DNA of 61,634 bases from Candidatus Magasanikiibacteriota bacterium (lineage in GTDB: Bacteria; Patescibacteriota; Patescibacteriia; Magasanikbacterales; GWA2-37-8): NCBI GenBank assembly GCA_009694865.1, contig SICD01000002.1, positions 1 to 61,634 on the forward strand. The letters run 5' to 3'. The notes under the pieces are model-generated. The model saw only the letters and a list, made by a program, of their open reading frames with translations, did no database searches and had not been told where the DNA came from. The position numbers and the translations under genes are program-made. This document shows, in pieces, positions 13,228-57,570 of the stretch (positions within the stretch are counted from its first letter, which is position 1; each line of letters opens with the position of its first letter).

Positions 13228-14337
13228 ATGGGTAGGGAGGAAAATAGAGAAAATGGTTTGGCAAGCTTGGCCGAAGAGTTGGGAAGTCGGATTGATGCCG
13301 CCTTAAAAAATAATCGGCTAATAAGCGAGCTAACACCGGATAGTTTTAAGGACTTTGACCGTGGTTTGCACGACGCGGTTTTGGAAATGCTTCCTTCAAA
13401 ATTGAACGGAAAGAGAGTAGAAAAAAATTGGGAACCATTCGTCCAAACCTTTCGAGAGACGCGACGGGATTTAGCGGCGCTCTGGCCAACTCCAGGCGAG
13501 CGAGCTGAACGCGACTTGGCGAGTGTTGTGAACGAACTTTTAGAATTGTTGGAAATAGAAAAGCCGGCAGCGTTTTCTTCGGCTTGGATAAAAGAAAAAA
13601 ATAAAGATTTATTTTATAGAGTTCGTTTTCAATGTACTGATGAAAATGGGCAACGCGACTGGAACAAAGTTTTAAAGCACCCCCTTTTTCCAAAATATTG
13701 GGTAGATCGTTGGCGCAATAAGCGTGGTGAAAAGAGCCTTCACCCGGCCGATGTAGAGGCCGCGCGTGAGGCTGTAAAAAAAGCCGTGCTGGGAGACAAG
13801 ATAAGTCCCGTATTTTTTCAAAAAAATCTCGACGCGGCTACTTTTCGTCGTATTAATGATGCTTTGCCAAAAACTGAAGAGGGTCGCGATTGGGAGCCTC
13901 TTTTTAGTCTTATAGACGACTGCTTGTCACGAGAAGATCGGGAGGAAAGAAAGCAGGCCCAAAGAAAAAAGGAGACAAAAGTAATAGCTTCGCCACGGAT
14001 AAAAAAAGATATACCGGCGCAAGATTCGAAAAAAAGTTTGTCTTTATTTTTAGAAGCTAGAGAAGAAATAGAACGGAAACTGCCGGAGAAGGCCCTTCTA
14101 AGTTTGGTTTTTGGAGCGAAGCGCGGAGACCAAGCCGCGGGTCGCGATTTAGAAAAATTGTTGACCCCACTGGTAATGGAGTGGAGCTCCTTAAAAATAG
14201 AATTTAAACGATACAGGTCAGACAATGGAGCGGCCATGGCGGTGCTGCGATGGTGTGTCGAAAGATATTCCGAAGGGATCCCAATGCCATTTATTGAATA
14301 TTTTAAGCTACATTTGCAACGGGCGGCTCGAAGATAA
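13228..14337 (+). CDS. Hypothetical protein with a C-terminal segment resembling sigma-70 region 1.2/2
   Basis: 369 aa, charged and helical. The last roughly 80 aa (AKRGDQAAGRDLEKLL...FIEYFKLHLQRAARR) follow the sigma region-2 pattern, but the ORF ends before regions 3/4. Confidence 0.5.
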   Translation: MGREENRENGLASLAEELGSRIDAALKNNRLISELTPDSFKDFDRGLHDAVLEMLPSKLNGKRVEKNWEPFVQTFRETRRDLAALWPTPGERAERDLASVVNELLELLEIEKPAAFSSAWIKEKNKDLFYRVRFQCTDENGQRDWNKVLKHPLFPKYWVDRWRNKRGEKSLHPADVEAAREAVKKAVLGDKISPVFFQKNLDAATFRRINDALPKTEEGRDWEPLFSLIDDCLSREDREERKQAQRKKETKVIASPRIKKDIPAQDSKKSLSLFLEAREEIERKLPEKALLSLVFGAKRGDQAAGRDLEKLLTPLVMEWSSLKIEFKRYRSDNGAAMAVLRWCVERYSEGIPMPFIEYFKLHLQRAARR

Positions 14338-33527: not shown

Positions 33528-34571
33528 TTAAACGCATTCTGTCCCGCAAAACACTCGCCCATTACTTTCATAACATTGCTCGCAACAAATAAAATGGGCG
33601 TTGCAGCTTTTAAGATTACAGTTGACGTAGTTTTCACTTGAGGCATTGCATTTGTCACAACGGCCGACGATTTCATGGGGCGTGGCGGGTGAGTTGAAGG
33701 CCATAGTAACGCGGCCGTCGAAAACGTAGAGTTTGCCTTTAAAATCTTCTTCGGGATATTTTTCCATGTAGGTAACGATGCCATTTTCCAGTTGGTACAC
33801 GTCGTTGAATCCATTTTGGAGAAGGAAGCCAGAGGCTTTTTCACAGCGCACGCCGCCGGTGCAAACCGTCACCACTGTTTTATTTTTAAGAGGCTCAAGA
33901 ATCGGTAAGATTTGAGACAAGTTGCGGAAATTTTTTAAGGGCGGCAGAATGGAATTTTGGAAAAAACCAATTTTGTGTTCGTAGTCGTTGCGCATGTCCA
34001 CAATATAAAATTCTTTTGGTTCACGAGAGATCAGACATTCCTCAATTCCCCCCTCGCAGGGGGGCACACGGGGGGTGTTGGTCGTTGGTTCGTTTGTTGT
34101 TGAGTGGTGAAGGCCGCCAACACCCCCCACGTCGCCCCCTTGCGAGGGGGGATTAGTAAAGCAGTTGTTACAGACCGTCTTGTTTGATCCATGAATCCAA
34201 CTATGTAGTTCTTCTGCTTTGATGTATTTCCCCGTTATTTGCGTTGGGTTTATATCGGCGTCGCCTAAGTGTCCGCTGACAATTTCTTTGCGTGCTTTAA
34301 TGGAGAGCCGAGGGAAAGCTTCTCCAGTACCCACACTTTTTTTGAAATCAATGTCCGCAAAGCGTAGGTCGAGCCGCGTCGCTTGAATATATTTTTCAGT
34401 ATCGTCTACCAAGCCTTCCACGGTTCCGTTAATGCCTTCTTCGGCAATAATAATACGGCCTTTAAGGTTGAGGCGTTCGCACAGCTCACGCTGAGTAGTG
34501 ACGAGTTCGGCTGGATTATTGATGTGGGTGTATTTGTAGTAGAGGAGAATTTGGAACATATTATGTGTCAT
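33528..34571 (-). CDS. trhO: Rhodanese-domain tRNA uridine(34) hydroxylase-like protein (UPF0176/YceA) carrying an internal Family B repeat
   Basis: N-terminus ILLYYKY...LKGRIIIAEEGINGTVEG, rhodanese active-site loop CTGGVRCEKAS, C-terminal Cys cluster. The insert is encoded by 34047-34151. Confidence 0.85.
   Translation of the reverse strand: MTHNMFQILLYYKYTHINNPAELVTTQRELCERLNLKGRIIIAEEGINGTVEGLVDDTEKYIQATRLDLRFADIDFKKSVGTGEAFPRLSIKARKEIVSGHLGDADINPTQITGKYIKAEELHSWIHGSNKTVCNNCFTNPPSQGGDVGGVGGLHHSTTNEPTTNTPRVPPCEGGIEECLISREPKEFYIVDMRNDYEHKIGFFQNSILPPLKNFRNLSQILPILEPLKNKTVVTVCTGGVRCEKASGFLLQNGFNDVYQLENGIVTYMEKYPEEDFKGKLYVFDGRVTMAFNSPATPHEIVGRCDKCNASSENYVNCNLKSCNAHFICCEQCYESNGRVFCGTECV
34047..34151. 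repeat. Family B element inside the trhO CDS (105 nt)
   Basis: CCCCCCT-CGC-AGGGGGG, a 12-bp stem GGGGGGTGTTGG/CCAACACCCCCC, and CCCCCT-TGCG-AGGGGG. Translated as NPPSQGGDVGGVGGLHHSTTNEPTTNTPRVPPCEGG. Confidence 0.65.
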
Positions 34572-40625: not shown

Positions 40626-40744
40626 ACTGCTTGCTTATGTAGTTAAATTTTGTTATTGTTAGTCAATAGAATTGCTCGTATCATAGCAGAAATTGATTAG
40701 AATTACCAGATGTTCACATTATTACAGTGTTGGCTCTCAATCAA

Positions 40745-40799
40745 GGGGATTGCCACGCCTGCCTGCCGGTAGGCAGGTCGCTACGCTCCTCGCAATGAC
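40745..40799. repeat. Family A arm upstream of and overlapping the glycosyltransferase start
   Basis: The reverse complement reads GTCATTGCGAGGAGCGTAGCGACCTGCCTACCGGCAGGCAGGCGTGGCAATCCCC. Confidence 0.6.
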
Positions 40800-42114
40800 A
40801 CTTGTGCAGCCAAAAATTCTCATCCTCCACGACTATTTTTTGTATAAAGGCGGCGGGGAGCGGCTGGTGATTAGCCTTGCCAAAAATTTGGGAGCAGATG
40901 TAGCCACGGCGTTTATTGCCAAGGACGCGTTTGACCCGCGTGAGCACGGAATAAAGACGATTGAACTGTATAAAGAAAAACCCTGGTCGCGAGTGCCGGG
41001 GTTTAGGTATTTGCAGGTGCAGTTGTCGTTTTTGTTTAAGACGAAATTTGTACGGAATTATGATGTAGTGATTTATAGTGGGGATTGTTTGGTGGCGGTG
41101 ATAAGGGCGTTGGGGTGGCGTGGATTGTGGCGAACCAGCGAGACCTCTCCCCAACCCTCCCCCCTGCGGTGGGGAGGGGGGCCAATCACACCTCCTCCAC
41201 CGCAGGGGAGGAGGCAGGAGGAGGATTCACATCATCTACGCAACATCGCCTATATGCATTCACCGCCCAGGCATTTGTATGATTTGTACAAGGAACGACT
41301 GGCGGCCTATCCTTGGTGGAAGAAAATTATTTTTGTGCCGTTTGTTTGGTTTAACCGCTGGCGATTTGAGTGGTTGTGTCGGAAATTGGATACAATTGTA
41401 ACTAATTCGGAGAATACGCGTAAAAGAATACAGCAGTATTTGGGTTTAGACTCAGTGGTGGTGTATCCACCGTGCGATACGTTGGTGTTGAAGAATGGGA
41501 GCGAGACCTCTCCCCAACCCTCCCCCCTGCGGTGGGGAGGGGGGCCAATCACACCTCCTCCACCGCAGGGGAGGAGGCAGGAGGAGGACTCGTCACCGGT
41601 CCACCCTTATTTTTTCTCCTGGGCACGATTGTATGATGTTAAGCGCGTGCCAATGATTGTGGAGGCCTTTATTAAAATGCCGGATAAACAGTTGATAGTG
41701 GCATCGGGTGGCCCGGATTTAGAAAAAATCCAAAAAATGGCGGCAGGACATTCGAATATAAAAATTTTAGGTTGGATTAATGACGAGCAGTTGATTGAGT
41801 ATTTAGGGAAATGTTTGGCAACGATTTATATCCCGATGCAGGAAGATTTTGGTATGACGGCGGTGGAGAGTATGCAAGCGGGGAAGCCGGTGATTGGGGT
41901 GGCGGAGGGCGGGCTCCTTGAAATTATTGAAGATAATAAAAATGGATTGATGTTAGAATCAAATTTTACGGTGGATGATTTGTGCGCGGCGGTGCAGTCA
42001 CTTACGCCGGATCGAGCCAGTGTAATGGAGAGTGTGTGCGAAGAAACCGCAAAGAAATTTTCCGAAAAAAGTTTTATTGAGGGGATGAAGAAAGTGATTG
42101 AAGGTGTTTGTTGA
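40795..42114 (+). CDS. GT4-family glycosyltransferase carrying two identical internal Family B repeats
   Basis: Start trimmed to MTLVQPKILILHDYF. C-terminal GT1/GT4 pattern EDFGMTAVESMQAGKPVIG. Inserts lie at 41137-41225 and 41500-41588. Confidence 0.85.
   Translation: MTLVQPKILILHDYFLYKGGGERLVISLAKNLGADVATAFIAKDAFDPREHGIKTIELYKEKPWSRVPGFRYLQVQLSFLFKTKFVRNYDVVIYSGDCLVAVIRALGWRGLWRTSETSPQPSPLRWGGGPITPPPPQGRRQEEDSHHLRNIAYMHSPPRHLYDLYKERLAAYPWWKKIIFVPFVWFNRWRFEWLCRKLDTIVTNSENTRKRIQQYLGLDSVVVYPPCDTLVLKNGSETSPQPSPLRWGGGPITPPPPQGRRQEEDSSPVHPYFFSWARLYDVKRVPMIVEAFIKMPDKQLIVASGGPDLEKIQKMAAGHSNIKILGWINDEQLIEYLGKCLATIYIPMQEDFGMTAVESMQAGKPVIGVAEGGLLEIIEDNKNGLMLESNFTVDDLCAAVQSLTPDRASVMESVCEETAKKFSEKSFIEGMKKVIEGVC
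41137..41225. repeat. Family B element, copy 1 inside the glycosyltransferase CDS
   Basis: 89/89 nt identical to 41500-41588. Hairpins are CCCTCCCC-CCTGCGGT-GGGGAGGG and CCTCCTCC-ACCGCAGG-GGAGGAGG. Confidence 0.85.
41500..41588. repeat. Family B element, copy 2 inside the glycosyltransferase CDS
   Basis: Identical to copy 1, offset by 363 nt (same reading frame). Both encode SETSPQPSPLRWGGGPITPPPPQGRRQEEDS. Confidence 0.85.
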
Positions 42115-44357: not shown

Positions 44358-44750
44358 TTATTGATGTCGGGGGTGGGCATCTGGGTACAGGAGTGGCTCC
44401 TCTTTTTCTCCAATTGTGTCTACCCCCGGGTAAGTATCGTTTTCTCCAAGTAAATCATCACGCCGTGCACGCATCGCGCTGGTGCGCTCATTTTCTTGTG
44501 CTCGTTTATTTAATTCACGCAGCTCCTCCCGTTCAGCCAGTTCAGTCCGTAGTTGTTGTATAGCCACTTTAAAATAAGCATTGTTTCGTTTTTCAACATA
44601 ATTTGGTTCGCCGCGTTTACCATAAAATTTTTCCAGCGCTTTTCCGACGGAAAATTGTAACGTGTAACCACTGTCAACCCACGTTAAGGCTTCAGCAACT
44701 ATTTTGTTGATTATGACGGTTTCTAAGCCGTTGCGTTTTGGTAGTGTCAT
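44358..44750 (-). CDS. Hypothetical protein
   Basis: 130-aa ORF overlapping the upstream gene by 4 nt. No motif recognised. Confidence 0.5.
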   Translation of the reverse strand: MTLPKRNGLETVIINKIVAEALTWVDSGYTLQFSVGKALEKFYGKRGEPNYVEKRNNAYFKVAIQQLRTELAEREELRELNKRAQENERTSAMRARRDDLLGENDTYPGVDTIGEKEEPLLYPDAHPRHQ

Positions 44751-45580
44751 AGTGGGCGGGCGTTTATATAATGGCGCCGTTCTTTTTTGTTTAATTTTTC
44801 AATCGCGTATCGCAACATCGTGCGGGGCATGGTTGGATGATGTTGATTGAGAAATTTTTTCAGTAGGGGTGTATTGCCATACGCCAGCATTTCGCGTTTG
44901 CCAACTTCACGGAGCATCCAGCCGGTGGCTTTGTGAATTAAATCATGTTTGTCGTTAAGAAGCAAGGTGGCGAGGTGAATGGTTTCTTTGAAACGATTGG
45001 CGCGGATGAAGGCGAAGGTGGCGACGATGGCGATGCGGCGTTCCCAGAGGTTTGGGGAGCGGGCGAGGGTGGTGAGAAGAGCCAGCCGTGACTGAACCCC
45101 CCTCTCTGTCTCCCCCCTTATAGGGGGGAGAGGAATACGTTTGCCCTCCCCTATAAGGGGAGGGACGGAGGGTGGGGTTTTCGTTTCGCGTTCATCGTTC
45201 ACAAGATATTCCCCCACAATCTGCGAGGCGGATGCGTCCACTAAATCCCAATTATTAACGCGTTTGGCATTTTTGAGGTAGAAAGAAAATATTTTTTTCT
45301 TTTGAGATCCAGTACCTGTTTGAAATTGATGTACCAAGATGACGAGCGCGATGAAACGTCCCTCATGAATTTTTGATTTGAGTAGTTTTTGGATGTCGGG
45401 GAGGGGTAGAGTATAAAAATTTTTAGCAATTTTTCTTCGTTCGGGCACGGTGAGACCTAAAAATTTGTCGCCTTCGCCGTATTCGCCATGGCCGGTTTTG
45501 TAAAATCCACTGTATATTTTGGCTTTAGCGGGGTTGGCGTGGGAGTGGAGGATTTTTTTGAGTTGGGATAATGTCGGCAT
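44747..45580 (-). CDS. DNA alkylation repair (AlkD-like HEAT-repeat) protein carrying an internal Family B repeat
   Basis: Start trimmed out of a Family A arm to MPTLSQLKK. Motif VNNWDLVDASASQIVGEYL. The insert is encoded by 45095-45179. Confidence 0.8.
   Translation of the reverse strand: MPTLSQLKKILHSHANPAKAKIYSGFYKTGHGEYGEGDKFLGLTVPERRKIAKNFYTLPLPDIQKLLKSKIHEGRFIALVILVHQFQTGTGSQKKKIFSFYLKNAKRVNNWDLVDASASQIVGEYLVNDERETKTPPSVPPLIGEGKRIPLPPIRGETERGVQSRLALLTTLARSPNLWERRIAIVATFAFIRANRFKETIHLATLLLNDKHDLIHKATGWMLREVGKREMLAYGNTPLLKKFLNQHHPTMPRTMLRYAIEKLNKKERRHYINARPL
45095..45179. repeat. Family B element inside the alkD-like CDS
   Basis: Hairpins TCTCCCCCC-TTATA-GGGGGGAGA and CCCTCCCC-TATAA-GGGGAGGG within an AACCCC...GGGGTT outer stem. 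Translated as TPPSVPPLIGEGKRIPLPPIRGETERG. Confidence 0.65.
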
Positions 45581-45587
45581 ACATATA

Positions 45588-45623
45588 GTGAGCCAGAGAT
45601 TCCTCCTGCGACGTCGGAATGAC
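45588..45623. repeat. Family A arm
   Basis: GTGAGCCAGAGATTCCTCCTGCGACGTCGGAATGAC, nearly identical to the arm at 18517-18550. Confidence 0.65.
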
Positions 45624-45628
45624 AATGT

Positions 45629-51871: not shown

Positions 51872-52019
51872 ATGTACGAAATACGAAAGCTACGAAAGTA
51901 CGAAATGCAATGGACGCGCTCTCATGATAGCTAAAATGTGGGGCGGAGGCAATGAGTTGTGTCCTTTGAAGCGCGACGGTTTTATATTTAATGTGGCCAC
52001 ATCTATATTTTTATTTCTG

Positions 52020-52104
52020 CGGAGAGGGTGAGATTCGAACTCACGGTCCCTTGCGGGACACGGCTTTTCGAGAGCCGCACTTTAGACCACTCAGACACCT
52101 CTCC
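52020..52104 (-). tRNA. tRNA-Ser (anticodon CGA)
   Basis: GGAGAGGTG...anticodon arm CGGCT-CTCGAAA-AGCCG, long variable arm, T-arm GTGAGTTCGAATCTCAC. No encoded CCA. Confidence 0.88.
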
Positions 52105-54850: not shown

Positions 54851-55576
54851 TTAAAATTCAAGCAACAACGCCATGTGGTCAGACACCTCTTCGGGTAGCA
54901 CCTCAAATTTTTTTACAGTTACATCAGGTGATACAAAAATATAGTCAGCAAACTTTCCTTCCTTGGTATAAAAAGAGCTGCGAGTAGATTTAATGTTGTA
55001 CGTTTTGATAAGATTTTTCATTCCGCCCCCAAGCATCGCGATACTGGTTGTGTCGGGGTTCAAATTAAAATCACCGCAGAGTATTTTGGGGGAAGGAACG
55101 GTGTCCATGAAGCTTTTAATTTTTTCCGACTGGGTAATTCTCGTTGGAGTATCATTTTTGTCGATGCCCGTCCAGAGACCGTGTACGTTGAGGATAGTAT
55201 ATGTGGTGCCTTGCAATTCGCACCGCATCCATTGAAGATTTCGAGAATGGTCTCCGCCACTACCGGAATAATTTAGAACCTCACAAATCCACAATGCCCC
55301 TTCTTCTATAACCGGTATTTCTTTTTTTATAAAAATCCCGATGCCGTAAATATTTTTTATAACTGGTCTAAAAAATGATTGGTGATCGGGAAGTAATTTC
55401 TGTAAGTCCGTATATAAATTAAGATTGGGTGGTCGCCGGTTATCGGACATTTTTTCTGGCGAGTTATGATAGATTTCTTGGAAACAAAATACGTCAGTGT
55501 CCTGATTGTTTTTAATAAAATGAAATAACGGCTCCCGAATTCTTCCGCCCCACAAATTAAGGGTTATTAATTTCAT
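54851..55576 (-). CDS. Endonuclease/exonuclease/phosphatase (EEP) family protein
   Basis: MKLITLNLWGG..., CFQE, GDFN, and C-terminal SDHMAL. Confidence 0.8.
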   Translation of the reverse strand: MKLITLNLWGGRIREPLFHFIKNNQDTDVFCFQEIYHNSPEKMSDNRRPPNLNLYTDLQKLLPDHQSFFRPVIKNIYGIGIFIKKEIPVIEEGALWICEVLNYSGSGGDHSRNLQWMRCELQGTTYTILNVHGLWTGIDKNDTPTRITQSEKIKSFMDTVPSPKILCGDFNLNPDTTSIAMLGGGMKNLIKTYNIKSTRSSFYTKEGKFADYIFVSPDVTVKKFEVLPEEVSDHMALLLEF

Positions 55577-55854
55577 ATTTTGAAGTGATATTTTATAAAT
55601 GCTCGGCCAGAACCCGATTTTAGGTATTTTTCAAAATTGAAAGCTATATATTTATCTTTAAAAGCAAAATATGCGACAAGTTCTAAGGGCAGTCGTTTGG
55701 TGGTGGCAGGCACTAAGCCTTTTTGGTGGCGGCCCACCCTTTCCTTAAGGTCGGACGTACAACCAATATAATACCCATTTTTACATTTTAAGCTGTAAAC
55801 ATAAAACATAGTCCCTCTCTTAAAAACAAAACCATTTACTGCGGACTTTGTCAC
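55573..55854 (-). CDS. GIY-YIG domain nuclease-family protein
   Basis: FYVYSLKCKNGYYIGCTSDLKERVGRHQKG. Overlaps the EEP gene by 4 nt. Confidence 0.8.
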   Translation of the reverse strand: MTKSAVNGFVFKRGTMFYVYSLKCKNGYYIGCTSDLKERVGRHQKGLVPATTKRLPLELVAYFAFKDKYIAFNFEKYLKSGSGRAFIKYHFKI

Positions 55855-56038
55855 GCTGAAACCTCGCCTTAACTCGAGAGAATTTAGGTAGTAAAATTAT
55901 TCCTAAAATTACTCCCCGCCTTCGCTACGGCTACGGCGAGGTGAAAGCGGGCTTGGCGAGACTACGTGGAAACCCAGATTACTTCTGTTCGTCTCGTGGA
56001 TGAGGATAGTCTAACTGAATGTTAGACCAGTGTAAAGA

Positions 56039-57162: not shown

Positions 57163-57210
57163 GCGGAAAAAATAAGATTCGAACTCACGGTACCTTGCGG
57201 TACGACAGTT
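57163..57210 (-). pseudogene. Decayed 3' half of a second tRNA-Ser(UGA)-like gene
   Basis: AGATTCGAACTCACGGTACCTTGCGGTACGACAGTTTT is identical to the intact gene, but the acceptor 3' strand GAGGGTG is replaced by AAAAATA, which disrupts the T stem. Confidence 0.6.
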
Positions 57211-57267
57211 TTTCCCCCTCGCGGGGGATCACCCGAGCTGTGGCTCTGGCGAGAGGGTGACAAGACT
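57207..57267. repeat. 61-nt direct repeat, copy 1 (anticodon-loop flanks plus 48-nt GC-rich Family-B-like insert)
   Basis: AGTTTTTCCCCCTCGCGGGGGATCACCCGAGCTGTGGCTCTGGCGAGAGGGTGACAAGACT, 60/61 identical to 57458-57518. Confidence 0.8.
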
Positions 57268-57278
57268 TACCACTACAG

Positions 57279-57363
57279 CGGAGAGGGTGAGATTCGAACT
57301 CACGGTACCTTGCGGTACGACAGTTTTCAAGACTGTTGGTTTCAACCGCTCACCCACCTCTCC
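57279..57363 (-). tRNA. tRNA-Ser (anticodon UGA), intact
   Basis: GGAGAGGTGGGTGAGCGGTTGAAACC..., anticodon arm ACAGT-CTTGAAA-ACTGT, long variable arm CGTACCGCAAGGTACCG, T-arm GTGAGTTCGAATCTCAC. Confidence 0.88.
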
Positions 57364-57457
57364 GCTCTCGTGATAAATTTTAATTTTCTACGCTGAAATT
57401 TTTTATTCTTCTTTTTTAATTTACTTTCAATAAAGTAGACTACTCCCATACGTGTAA

Positions 57458-57518
57458 AGTTTTTCCCCCTCGCGGGGGATCACCCGAGCTGCGGCTCTGG
57501 CGAGAGGGTGACAAGACT
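57458..57518. repeat. 61-nt direct repeat, copy 2
   Basis: Same sequence as 57207-57267 with one C/T difference. Confidence 0.8.
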
Positions 57519-57570
57519 GTTGGTTTAAACCGCTCACCCACCTCTCCGCTCTCGCGATAAATTTAATTTT
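57512..57570 (-). pseudogene. 5' half of the interrupted tRNA-Ser(UGA)-like gene plus duplicated upstream flank
   Basis: CAAGACTGTTGGTTTAAACCGCTCACCCACCTCTCC + GCTCTCGCGATAAATTTAATTTT, compared with the intact ...TTTCAACCGC...GCTCTCGTGATAAATTTTAATTTT. Confidence 0.6.

Follow-up and report, generated by a model that had tools for sequence, protein, structure and literature searches.

In the genome of a Candidatus Magasanikiibacteriota bacterium (NCBI GenBank assembly GCA_009694865.1), an intact tRNA-Ser(UGA) gene lies nested inside a second, dead copy that it separates into two parts, and a GC-rich mini-element, here called E, occupies the anticodon loop of the broken copy on either side of the nested segment. 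The stretch of DNA analysed as a whole, hereafter the window, comprises positions 1 to 61,634 (61,634 nt) of contig SICD01000002.1; the minus strand is the sense strand at this locus. A broken outer tRNA-Ser arranged around a GIY-YIG nuclease gene and an intact tRNA-Ser(UGA) is a recurring architecture in related bacteria, and because the layout recurs the locus looks like the footprint of a mobile cassette and not like a one-off accident. In the reading that we favour, and to which we would give an even chance of being right, a cassette made of a GIY-YIG gene and a replacement tRNA entered the anticodon arm of a resident tRNA-Ser(UGA) copy that already had E, with duplication of positions 29-41 together with E.

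All the parts of the locus listed by an initial annotation of this DNA were recovered in their places with a repeat finder and by alignment (Table 1). Read along the sense strand, the outer 5′ fragment starts with a leader of ~23 nt (57548-57570), followed by tRNA positions 1-35 (57512-57547, with terminal CAGTCTTG), and a local alignment puts the beginning of its homology ~25 nt before the tRNA start. Beyond the first copy of E, the tRNA homology of this fragment stops after AAAACT, 3 bp into the 3′ strand of the anticodon stem, and that of the outer 3′ fragment opens at AGTCTTG, 3 bp into the 5′ strand of the same stem. The nested segment between them is 190 nt long (57268-57457) and has anticodon-arm positions 29-41, with E in the loop, on both its sides. 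It had been proposed that the second tRNA copy is split by the 48-nt element. The insert is indeed present, and alignment with the intact gene confirmed that it sits between anticodon nucleotides 35 and 36 (CTTG^AAA), but the actual split is made by the 190-nt segment.

Several direct repeats define this organisation. The one of 61 nt that had been described at 57207-57267 and 57458-57518 was reproduced by the repeat finder with 60/61 identical positions, and its two copies terminate symmetrically 3 bp into the anticodon stem, in the order AGT-CTTG-E-AAA-ACT. A repeat of 59 nt (57328-57386 and 57512-57570, 93%) covers the 5′ half plus ~23 nt of leader, whereas the 3′ half is covered by a repeat of 50 nt (57163-57212 and 57278-57327), whose copies are only 66 nt apart and share their first 38 nt before showing 5 changes. 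These five differences of the outer 3′ half, within 57163-57182, are all C>T (CACCCTCT to TATTTTTT), fall in the 3′ strands of the T and acceptor stems, and each of them retains G.U pairing with the 5′ strand.

Table 1. Features of the nested tRNA-Ser(UGA) locus, in sense-strand order, and of two neighbouring genes.
Feature	Position	Strand	Description
Outer tRNA-Ser(UGA) 5′ fragment, dead	57512..57570	-	59-nt direct repeat with the intact gene; BLAST identity 35/36
Element E, copy 1	57464..57511	-	48-nt GC-rich double-hairpin mini-element between anticodon positions 35 and 36
AAAACT	57458..57463	-	tRNA positions 36-41 of the outer 5′ fragment
Spacer S	57387..57457	-	8-nt linker (TTACACGT), decayed GIY-YIG gene start, A-rich stretch
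Inner tRNA leader	57364..57386	-	last 13 nt (57364-57376, TTATCACGAGAGC) complementary to the trailer
Intact tRNA-Ser(UGA)	57278..57363	-	ARAGORN; Rfam RF00005, 59.7 bits
10-nt trailer x (TGTAGTGGTA)	57268..57277	-	complementary to the leader; its 3′ end is the right junction of the nested segment
AGTCTTG	57261..57267	-	tRNA positions 29-35 of the outer 3′ fragment
Element E, copy 2	57213..57260	-	47/48 identical to copy 1
Outer 3′ fragment, dead	57163..57212	-	tRNA position 36 to end, opening with AAAACTGTCG
Intact GIY-YIG nuclease gene	55573..55809	-	78 aa, UPF0213 type; 1.35 kb downstream of the locus
tRNA-Ser(CGA)	52019..52104	-	5.1 kb from tRNA-Ser(UGA)

Both ARAGORN and Rfam call a tRNA at the inner copy only, which agrees with the original view of a functional tRNA nested between the halves of a dead one: the outer halves are dead and the inner gene is presumably the working copy. 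A 94-nt spacer (57457-57364), made up of the spacer S and the leader of the inner tRNA, separates AAAACT from the intact gene. Leader and trailer of this gene can pair over ~13 nt (10 Watson-Crick and 2 G.U pairs of 14), and they were detected as an inverted repeat in the repeat search. A similar pairing (11 Watson-Crick and 2 G.U) occurs in one related locus, L011 (see below), as opposed to merely 2-5 Watson-Crick pairs in six other relatives, and the complementarity is retained in the window and in L011 in spite of unlike leader and trailer sequences. Rfam recognised only tRNAs at both loci. A spurious open reading frame (ORF) covers the window locus; used as a query, it gave only ORFs over ordinary tRNA-Ser genes.

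GIY-YIG genes and related loci

Beyond what the initial annotation had described, the locus holds a GIY-YIG remnant in its spacer, its layout recurs elsewhere with an intact nuclease gene, and the duplicated unit has symmetric ends 3 bp into the stem. After the 8-nt linker, the spacer S reads ATG GGA GTA GTC TAC TTT ATT GAA AGT AAA (MGVVYFIESK), with the ATG at 57447-57449. Four GIY-YIG proteins were found by alignment to open with M-x-Y-V-Y-x-(L/I)-x-(S/C)-x, and GTCTAC is placed 9 nt past the ATG in the spacer and in the genes of the related loci L007, L008 and L011 alike. The observed score of the spacer against the GIY-YIG starts was reached in 17 out of 20000 shuffles of a permutation test. 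Moreover, its A-rich 3′ part is similar to the stretch from the GIY-YIG stop to the tRNA in L008 and L011 (p = 0.02-0.03), and the distance from the upstream E to the ATG is comparable, with 14 nt in the window, 20 nt in L011 and 15 nt in L008. By these similarities, the spacer holds the decayed start of a small GIY-YIG nuclease gene. A derivation of the same spacer from a decayed tRNA copy was also considered and set aside, as the similarity was not significant (p = 0.29).

An intact gene of this kind is found downstream in the window (Table 1). Its product matches Pfam PF01541 (E = 5e-11) and the UPF0213 structure PDB 1zg2, and represents a second GIY-YIG subtype, 72% identical to the protein of L007. 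The proteins of L008 and L011 showed weak matches to TIGR01453, a model for group I intron endonucleases. In the same neighbourhood, a conserved region of ~110 nt, running from TTTCACCTCGCC to AAGGCGAGGTTTCAGCGTGACAAAGTCCGC, was observed in the window (~55850-55960, minus strand), in L007 (9990-10110) and in L011 (14267-14390). In L007 and L011 this region comes after tRNA-Ser(CGA); in L007, as in the window, it stands ahead of the GIY-YIG gene. It gave no Rfam match and may be either a degenerate tRNA fragment with E or some other RNA.

Nine related loci were retrieved through homologues of a neighbouring lamin-tail-domain (LTD) protein of 1003 aa; by this protein, the window belongs with Magasanikbacteria-like Patescibacteria. 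The two flanking proteins (252 and 113 aa) are orphans and therefore of no use for synteny. The whole design was found in L011 (GCA_964570525.1), a distant Magasanikbacteria relative with an LTD protein 46% identical. On the left, it shows positions 1-20 of tRNA-Ser as a 5′ fragment, an E-family element of 30 nt placed in the D-loop, then AAGGCA (positions 21-26) and a linker of 14 nt; in the middle, an intact GIY-YIG gene (13647-13898), a leader, an intact tRNA-Ser(UGA) and a 10-nt trailer; and on the right, AGTCTTG, a 30-nt E-family element and AAAACTGTCG with the complete 3′ half. The right junction, where the 10-nt trailer is followed by A29, is equal in the window and L011. The left part of the design is also seen in L008, with a 5′ fragment 21/21 identical to its own intact gene, a 60-nt E, AGGGCA and a 9-nt linker, which continue into a GIY-YIG gene, 4 nt and the intact tRNA; a 14-nt fragment of the 3′ end lies farther downstream. 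Since L011 shows the whole design and L008 its left part, the nested tRNA-Ser architecture is a recurring one.

In five relatives lacking a GIY-YIG gene (L010, L014, L015/L016, L018 and L020) tRNA-Ser(UGA) is uninterrupted and has no extra fragments, which makes the arrangement of the window a derived one. The tRNA-Ser(CGA) gene is also found in L010 and L020, in the latter as direct neighbour of tRNA-Ser(UGA). A GIY-YIG gene stands beside tRNA-Ser genes in the window, L007, L008 and L011, and BLAST detected partial tRNA-Ser copies at three of these four loci versus none of the five without the nuclease gene. The comparison with relatives that had been proposed at the outset returned the same architecture with an intact GIY-YIG gene in related genomes and the plain state in the GIY-less ones.

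Other peculiarities were noticed at the related loci. Downstream of tRNA-Ser(CGA) in L008 (11939-12110) there is a perfect 17-bp hairpin, after which scrambled tRNA-Ser pieces occur in both orientations, including GTTCGAAT-AGCAAAGCG-CTCACCCTCTCCGC. In L015/L016, an HNH nuclease gene (13579-14067) lies ~500 nt downstream of the plain tRNA-Ser(UGA), another endonuclease family near this tRNA gene.

The double-hairpin element E

The initial annotation took the 48-nt insert for an element and suggested searching for it elsewhere in the genome; that the insert is a genuine element is supported by the occurrence of relatives in other genomes. Within the window the insert has two matches (0 and 1 mismatch), with none expected in 100 shuffles; family members were found in L002, L003, L004, L005, L008 and L011. 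A 24-nt piece of E matched a single one of 185,579 species genomes, the Patescibacteria metagenome-assembled genome L002, which has a 48-nt element with the first 10 and the last 28 nt of E around a different middle, placed in the loop of a 5-bp stem. Short forms of 31 nt were picked up with a degenerate pattern in the JGI metagenome contigs L003, L004 and L005, and a regular expression run over all the retrieved DNA revealed further members in L005, L008 and L011.

All the members of the family fold as two adjacent 6-bp hairpins, TCA(C/G)CC...GG(G/C)TGA and TCC(C/G)CC...GG(G/C)GGA, with compensatory stem changes among copies. One of the L005 elements, E-b (2064-2093), has an empty counterpart at the orthologous spot of L003 and shows no target duplication. 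No target-site duplication was seen at the 9 E sites compared; the element has no terminal inverted repeats, its hairpins standing side by side instead, and the sites are T-rich (TTG^AA, TTT^AA, TTT^TAA). No Rfam match was obtained for E, which is far below ribozyme size and folds only into the two simple hairpins. Altogether, the relatives elsewhere, the filled and empty sites, the double-hairpin fold and the T-rich sites indicate that E is a small mobile element scattered in Patescibacteria and not an intron.

Some possible affiliations of E were considered. A derivation from IS200/IS605- or IS91-type transposons, prompted by the position of E 3′ of (C)TTG, is kept only as a lead: the left flanks vary among TTG, TTT and CTG, and no HUH transposase was seen. 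Positions 1-14 of E (TCACCCTCTCGCCA) were likened to the mature 3′ end of tRNA-Ser with its CCA, a resemblance that is absent in the L002 copy and probably coincidental. A scan of IMG/VR gave a single partial resemblance to the second hairpin but no usable match, and nothing relevant was found in the literature on tRNA introns or palindromic elements in Patescibacteria.

Two contexts of family members are worth describing. In L005 (1739-2093), a small opposite-strand gene, which by eye may encode an RRM-type RNA-binding protein, lies between two E-family elements in direct orientation, the second of which is missing from the orthologous L003 locus. In L002 (420-700), a degenerate tRNA-Thr-like copy is found beside an intact tRNA-Thr(CGT), with a two-hairpin GC insert of 39-41 nt in its anticodon loop; this insert is unlike E, and an E-family element is present in a further tRNA-like remnant of the same region. 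It is an equal theme with another tRNA in another lineage.

The window contains other GC-rich palindromes, in frame within protein genes. Two inserts of 92 nt, 99% identical (41137-41228 and 41500-41591), both translated as SETSPQPSPLRWGGGPITPPPPQGRRQEEDS, occur in frame in one glycosyltransferase gene (ORF 40693-42114, plus strand), whose L008 orthologue has shorter, different sequence at both positions. A DNA-alkylation-repair gene (ORF 44747-45625, minus strand) carries an in-frame insert of 35 aa (~45083-45187) with GC hairpins at 45112-45160, which is missing from the L008 orthologue. Finally, a GC-rich element of 110 nt with three hairpins (34045-34154) is read through in frame in a 347-aa ORF (33528-34571, minus strand), presumably rhodanese/TrhO-like from its sequence; its end hairpins (CCCCCC-TCGCA-GGGGGG) are similar to the second hairpin of E.

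Origin of the locus

Under the favoured reading, a resident tRNA-Ser(UGA) copy would have carried E in its anticodon loop before its anticodon arm received a cassette in which a small GIY-YIG nuclease gene is accompanied by a complete tRNA-Ser(UGA). The symmetric limits of the 61-nt repeat agree with cleavage of the palindromic stem at AC^AGT on either strand, between positions 28 and 29 on the sense strand and 41 and 42 on the other. Such cuts would fall 3 bp into the stem, and fill-in of the resulting 13-nt overhangs would double positions 29-41 plus E, giving the 61-nt repeat that flanks the insert. With E already in the loop, a single event would account for both near-identical copies of the element as well as for the identical flanks of 7 and 6 nt. 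The disruption of the resident gene would be harmless because the inner gene supplies the tRNA; the dead outer halves would then drift and decay, and the nuclease gene of the cassette would later have been mostly deleted. The architecture, the structure and mobility of E, the GIY-YIG remnant, the recurrence of the design in L011 and L008 and its absence from the GIY-less relatives are observed facts; we infer that a nuclease, GIY-YIG or other, made the break, and likewise the staggered-cut origin of the repeat and the order of events. Among the three origins originally contemplated, the integration of a tRNA-bearing segment is the closest to the comparative data.

Several observations weigh against this cassette model. 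The similarity between the spacer and the GIY-YIG starts covers only ~10 codons. The GIY-YIG proteins concerned have 78-83 aa and consist of a UPF0213 catalytic domain (single-domain match to 1zg2), with neither a DNA-binding domain nor any known homing activity. The association between fragments and nuclease genes rests on nine loci (Fisher ~0.05), L007 has a GIY-YIG gene and yet no tRNA-Ser fragment by BLAST, and the left junction varies, being after position 41 in the window and after position 26 in L011 and L008. Moreover, the anticodon arm of the inner tRNA equals that of the presumed target, which leaves the immunity of the inner copy without explanation; if the outer copy carried E beforehand, another functional copy must have existed at that time; and the high identity between copies could stem from gene conversion, which would blur the order of events.

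A bolder proposal, unlikely in our estimation, is that E and the small GIY-YIG nuclease of UPF0213 type belong together in a mobile cassette of a kind new to bacteria. The nuclease would recognise the double-hairpin E and cut 7 nt before and 6 nt after it, and the cassette would move into tRNA-Ser genes with a complete replacement tRNA. Such a cassette would need neither intron nor integrase, and an orphan protein family of very wide distribution would thereby acquire a function. If the cassette model is right, the tiny genomes of Patescibacteria would harbour selfish nuclease cassettes able to enter a tRNA gene that is essential and present as a single copy, bringing its replacement with them. 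The single-domain GIY-YIG proteins of UPF0213, which are very common, would then have a possible role, and the double-hairpin mini-elements would make up a family with a habit of settling in the loops of DNA derived from tRNA genes. To our knowledge, the tactic of the replacement copy has not been described in bacterial chromosomes, being known from fungal mitochondria and partly from phage T4-like tRNA clusters. From a practical point of view, such loci yield tRNA pseudo-fragments and repeats that result in assembly breaks and possibly in tRNA mis-annotation in metagenome-assembled genomes.

Among the alternatives, the one that survives best, although we consider it fairly unlikely, dispenses with any nuclease: replication template switching or unequal recombination at a tRNA-Ser region rich in cloverleaf and hairpin DNA would have produced the partial copies, E would have later colonised the T-rich loops of the dead fragments, with gene conversion, and the GIY-YIG gene would be just an old neighbour. 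Only in the window and L011 is the trailer nearly the reverse complement of the leader, a relation that snap-back synthesis along a folded tRNA strand, with re-priming at A29, might leave. Insertion of E at T-rich TT(T/G)^A sites in several unrelated contexts also fits this scenario, as do the variable order of the GIY-YIG and the two tRNA-Ser genes among relatives, typical of a generally unstable region, and the 38 identical nt beside a diverged stretch in the 3′ fragment, suggestive of gene conversion. It does not predict, however, that fragments occur only at loci with a GIY-YIG gene, that the order fragment, E, linker and ATG is conserved in three genomes, or that the trailer-A29 junction is common to two distant genomes with different leader and trailer sequences; in addition, the 60/61 repeat with identical 7-nt and 6-nt flanks demands either two independent insertions of E or conversion.

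A quite improbable possibility, the second of the options in the initial annotation, is that E itself served as a recombination site, so that a 251-bp circle (E, AAAACT, spacer S, tRNA, trailer and AGTCTTG) was integrated into an E-interrupted tRNA through E-bearing stem-loops by a recombinase or transposase acting in trans. The nested unit is certainly bounded by two direct copies of E, like the small gene of L005, and the junctions keep constant offsets from the element, +6 for the anticodon loop of the window as for the D-loop of L011 and L008, and -7 in the window and L011, which speak for some E-directed step. But no recombinase or transposase family was matched among the 16 ORFs scanned (window 43.8-61.5 kb), and the donor would need E between anticodon-arm pieces next to non-tRNA DNA, the very structure under explanation. 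Besides, the E copies of L011 occupy different loops, so a simple E by E recombination regenerates no tRNA.

An RNA-level system, either an intron-containing or split tRNA whose halves are joined or the relic of one, as entertained in the initial annotation, is scarcely credible. In the outer 3′ fragment, the five C>T substitutions do preserve G.U pairing, and ARAGORN in intron mode, a check that had been recommended, can combine the inner 5′ half with the outer 3′ half into a tRNA that has an 'intron' of 115 nt, but these calls are forced and built on trivial homology. The join would land between anticodon bases 35 and 36, the halves are not contiguous and have another gene between them, the insert is too small for a ribozyme-sized core, and the uninterrupted genes of the plain relatives have no need of such a system. 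Furthermore, the copies of E are near-identical direct repeats and not complementary, and would therefore be unable to bring the halves together.

Equally hard to believe is an assembly artefact in which the assembler collapsed or chained a pair of alleles or of tRNA-Ser loci, an eventuality raised from the beginning: the source is evidently a metagenome assembly, and a Logan unitig (L001, run SRR8561390) breaks at the repeat, as expected, but the copies are non-identical (they differ at 1/36, 1/61 and 5/50 positions), the sequences of spacer and trailer are unique and could not stem from an allelic bubble, that independent unitig joins the degenerate outer 3′ half to the downstream flank, and equal geometry occurs in the unrelated assembly GCA_964570525.1.

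Comparison with known systems

The locus differs from the group I, group II and bulge-helix-bulge introns of tRNA genes in its non-contiguous exons and in an insert of two simple hairpins, and from the split or permuted tRNA genes of the Nanoarchaeum type in that the sequences adjacent to its halves are direct repeats in place of complements. With the elements mobilised by tyrosine integrases it would share, under the favoured reading, a tRNA gene as target at the anticodon arm, the restoration of function by the incoming sequence and perhaps a partial tRNA direct repeat; the 3′ half is indeed repeated, with 66 nt between its copies, and so is the 5′ half. Unlike them, the nested segment has only 190 nt, a whole tRNA is carried and not its 3′ part, the repeated core comprises 13 nt (61 nt with E) versus a 7-nt loop overlap, and no integrase was found among the 16 ORFs of the window from 43.8 to 61.5 kb.

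Rickettsia palindromic elements (RPE), repetitive extragenic palindromes (REP) and miniature inverted-repeat transposable elements (MITEs) are all miniature palindromic elements, and E resembles them in its small size, its GC-rich, hairpin-forming sequence, its dispersal and its variable presence at orthologous sites; the in-frame palindromes within protein genes of the window are likewise reminiscent of RPEs. On the other hand, E was seen in low copy number, lacks terminal inverted repeats and target duplications, and is found in loops of tRNA fragments and T-rich intergenic spots.

A GIY-YIG system also known to act on tRNA genes is SegB of phages T4 and T6, an endonuclease that cuts inside tRNA genes and drives the tandem amplification of a unit of tRNA plus segB, with duplicated units composed of the tRNA and a truncated segB (PMC13096335). 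Similarly, in our case a GIY-YIG gene lies directly beside tRNA genes and the duplicated unit comprises a tRNA and a truncated GIY-YIG gene. SegB, however, is a full-length phage enzyme with demonstrated cleavage, compared with the UPF0213-type domains of 78-83 aa, on a bacterial chromosome and with putative cleavage, that we describe, and the product at the window locus is a nested copy as opposed to a tandem array. With the DNA-binding domain missing and a putative activity, the locus is not a demonstrable member of the homing endonucleases.

By analogy, the way in which the locus works seems most like that of the mobile endonuclease ORFs (mORFs) found in fungal mitochondria, such as those in atp6 of Allomyces and in atp6, atp9, cox2 and nad3 of Glomus. 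These ORFs bring along a copy of one portion of the gene that they enter, and the original portion ends up downstream of them (PMC3630166). The host gene of a mORF stays functional because the endonuclease gene brings this copy; at our locus, too, the endonuclease gene would travel with a copy of the interrupted gene, the displaced native piece persisting as a fragment. The order of host gene part, endonuclease ORF, duplicated part and native fragment is directly seen in L011 and L008, with a decayed ORF in the window. The copy in a mORF is limited to the 3′ end of a protein gene and is fused in frame, whereas our locus has a complete tRNA gene as its cargo and resident fragments on both sides. 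The locus thereby brings together kinds already known: endonuclease cassettes that duplicate their target gene, and miniature elements.

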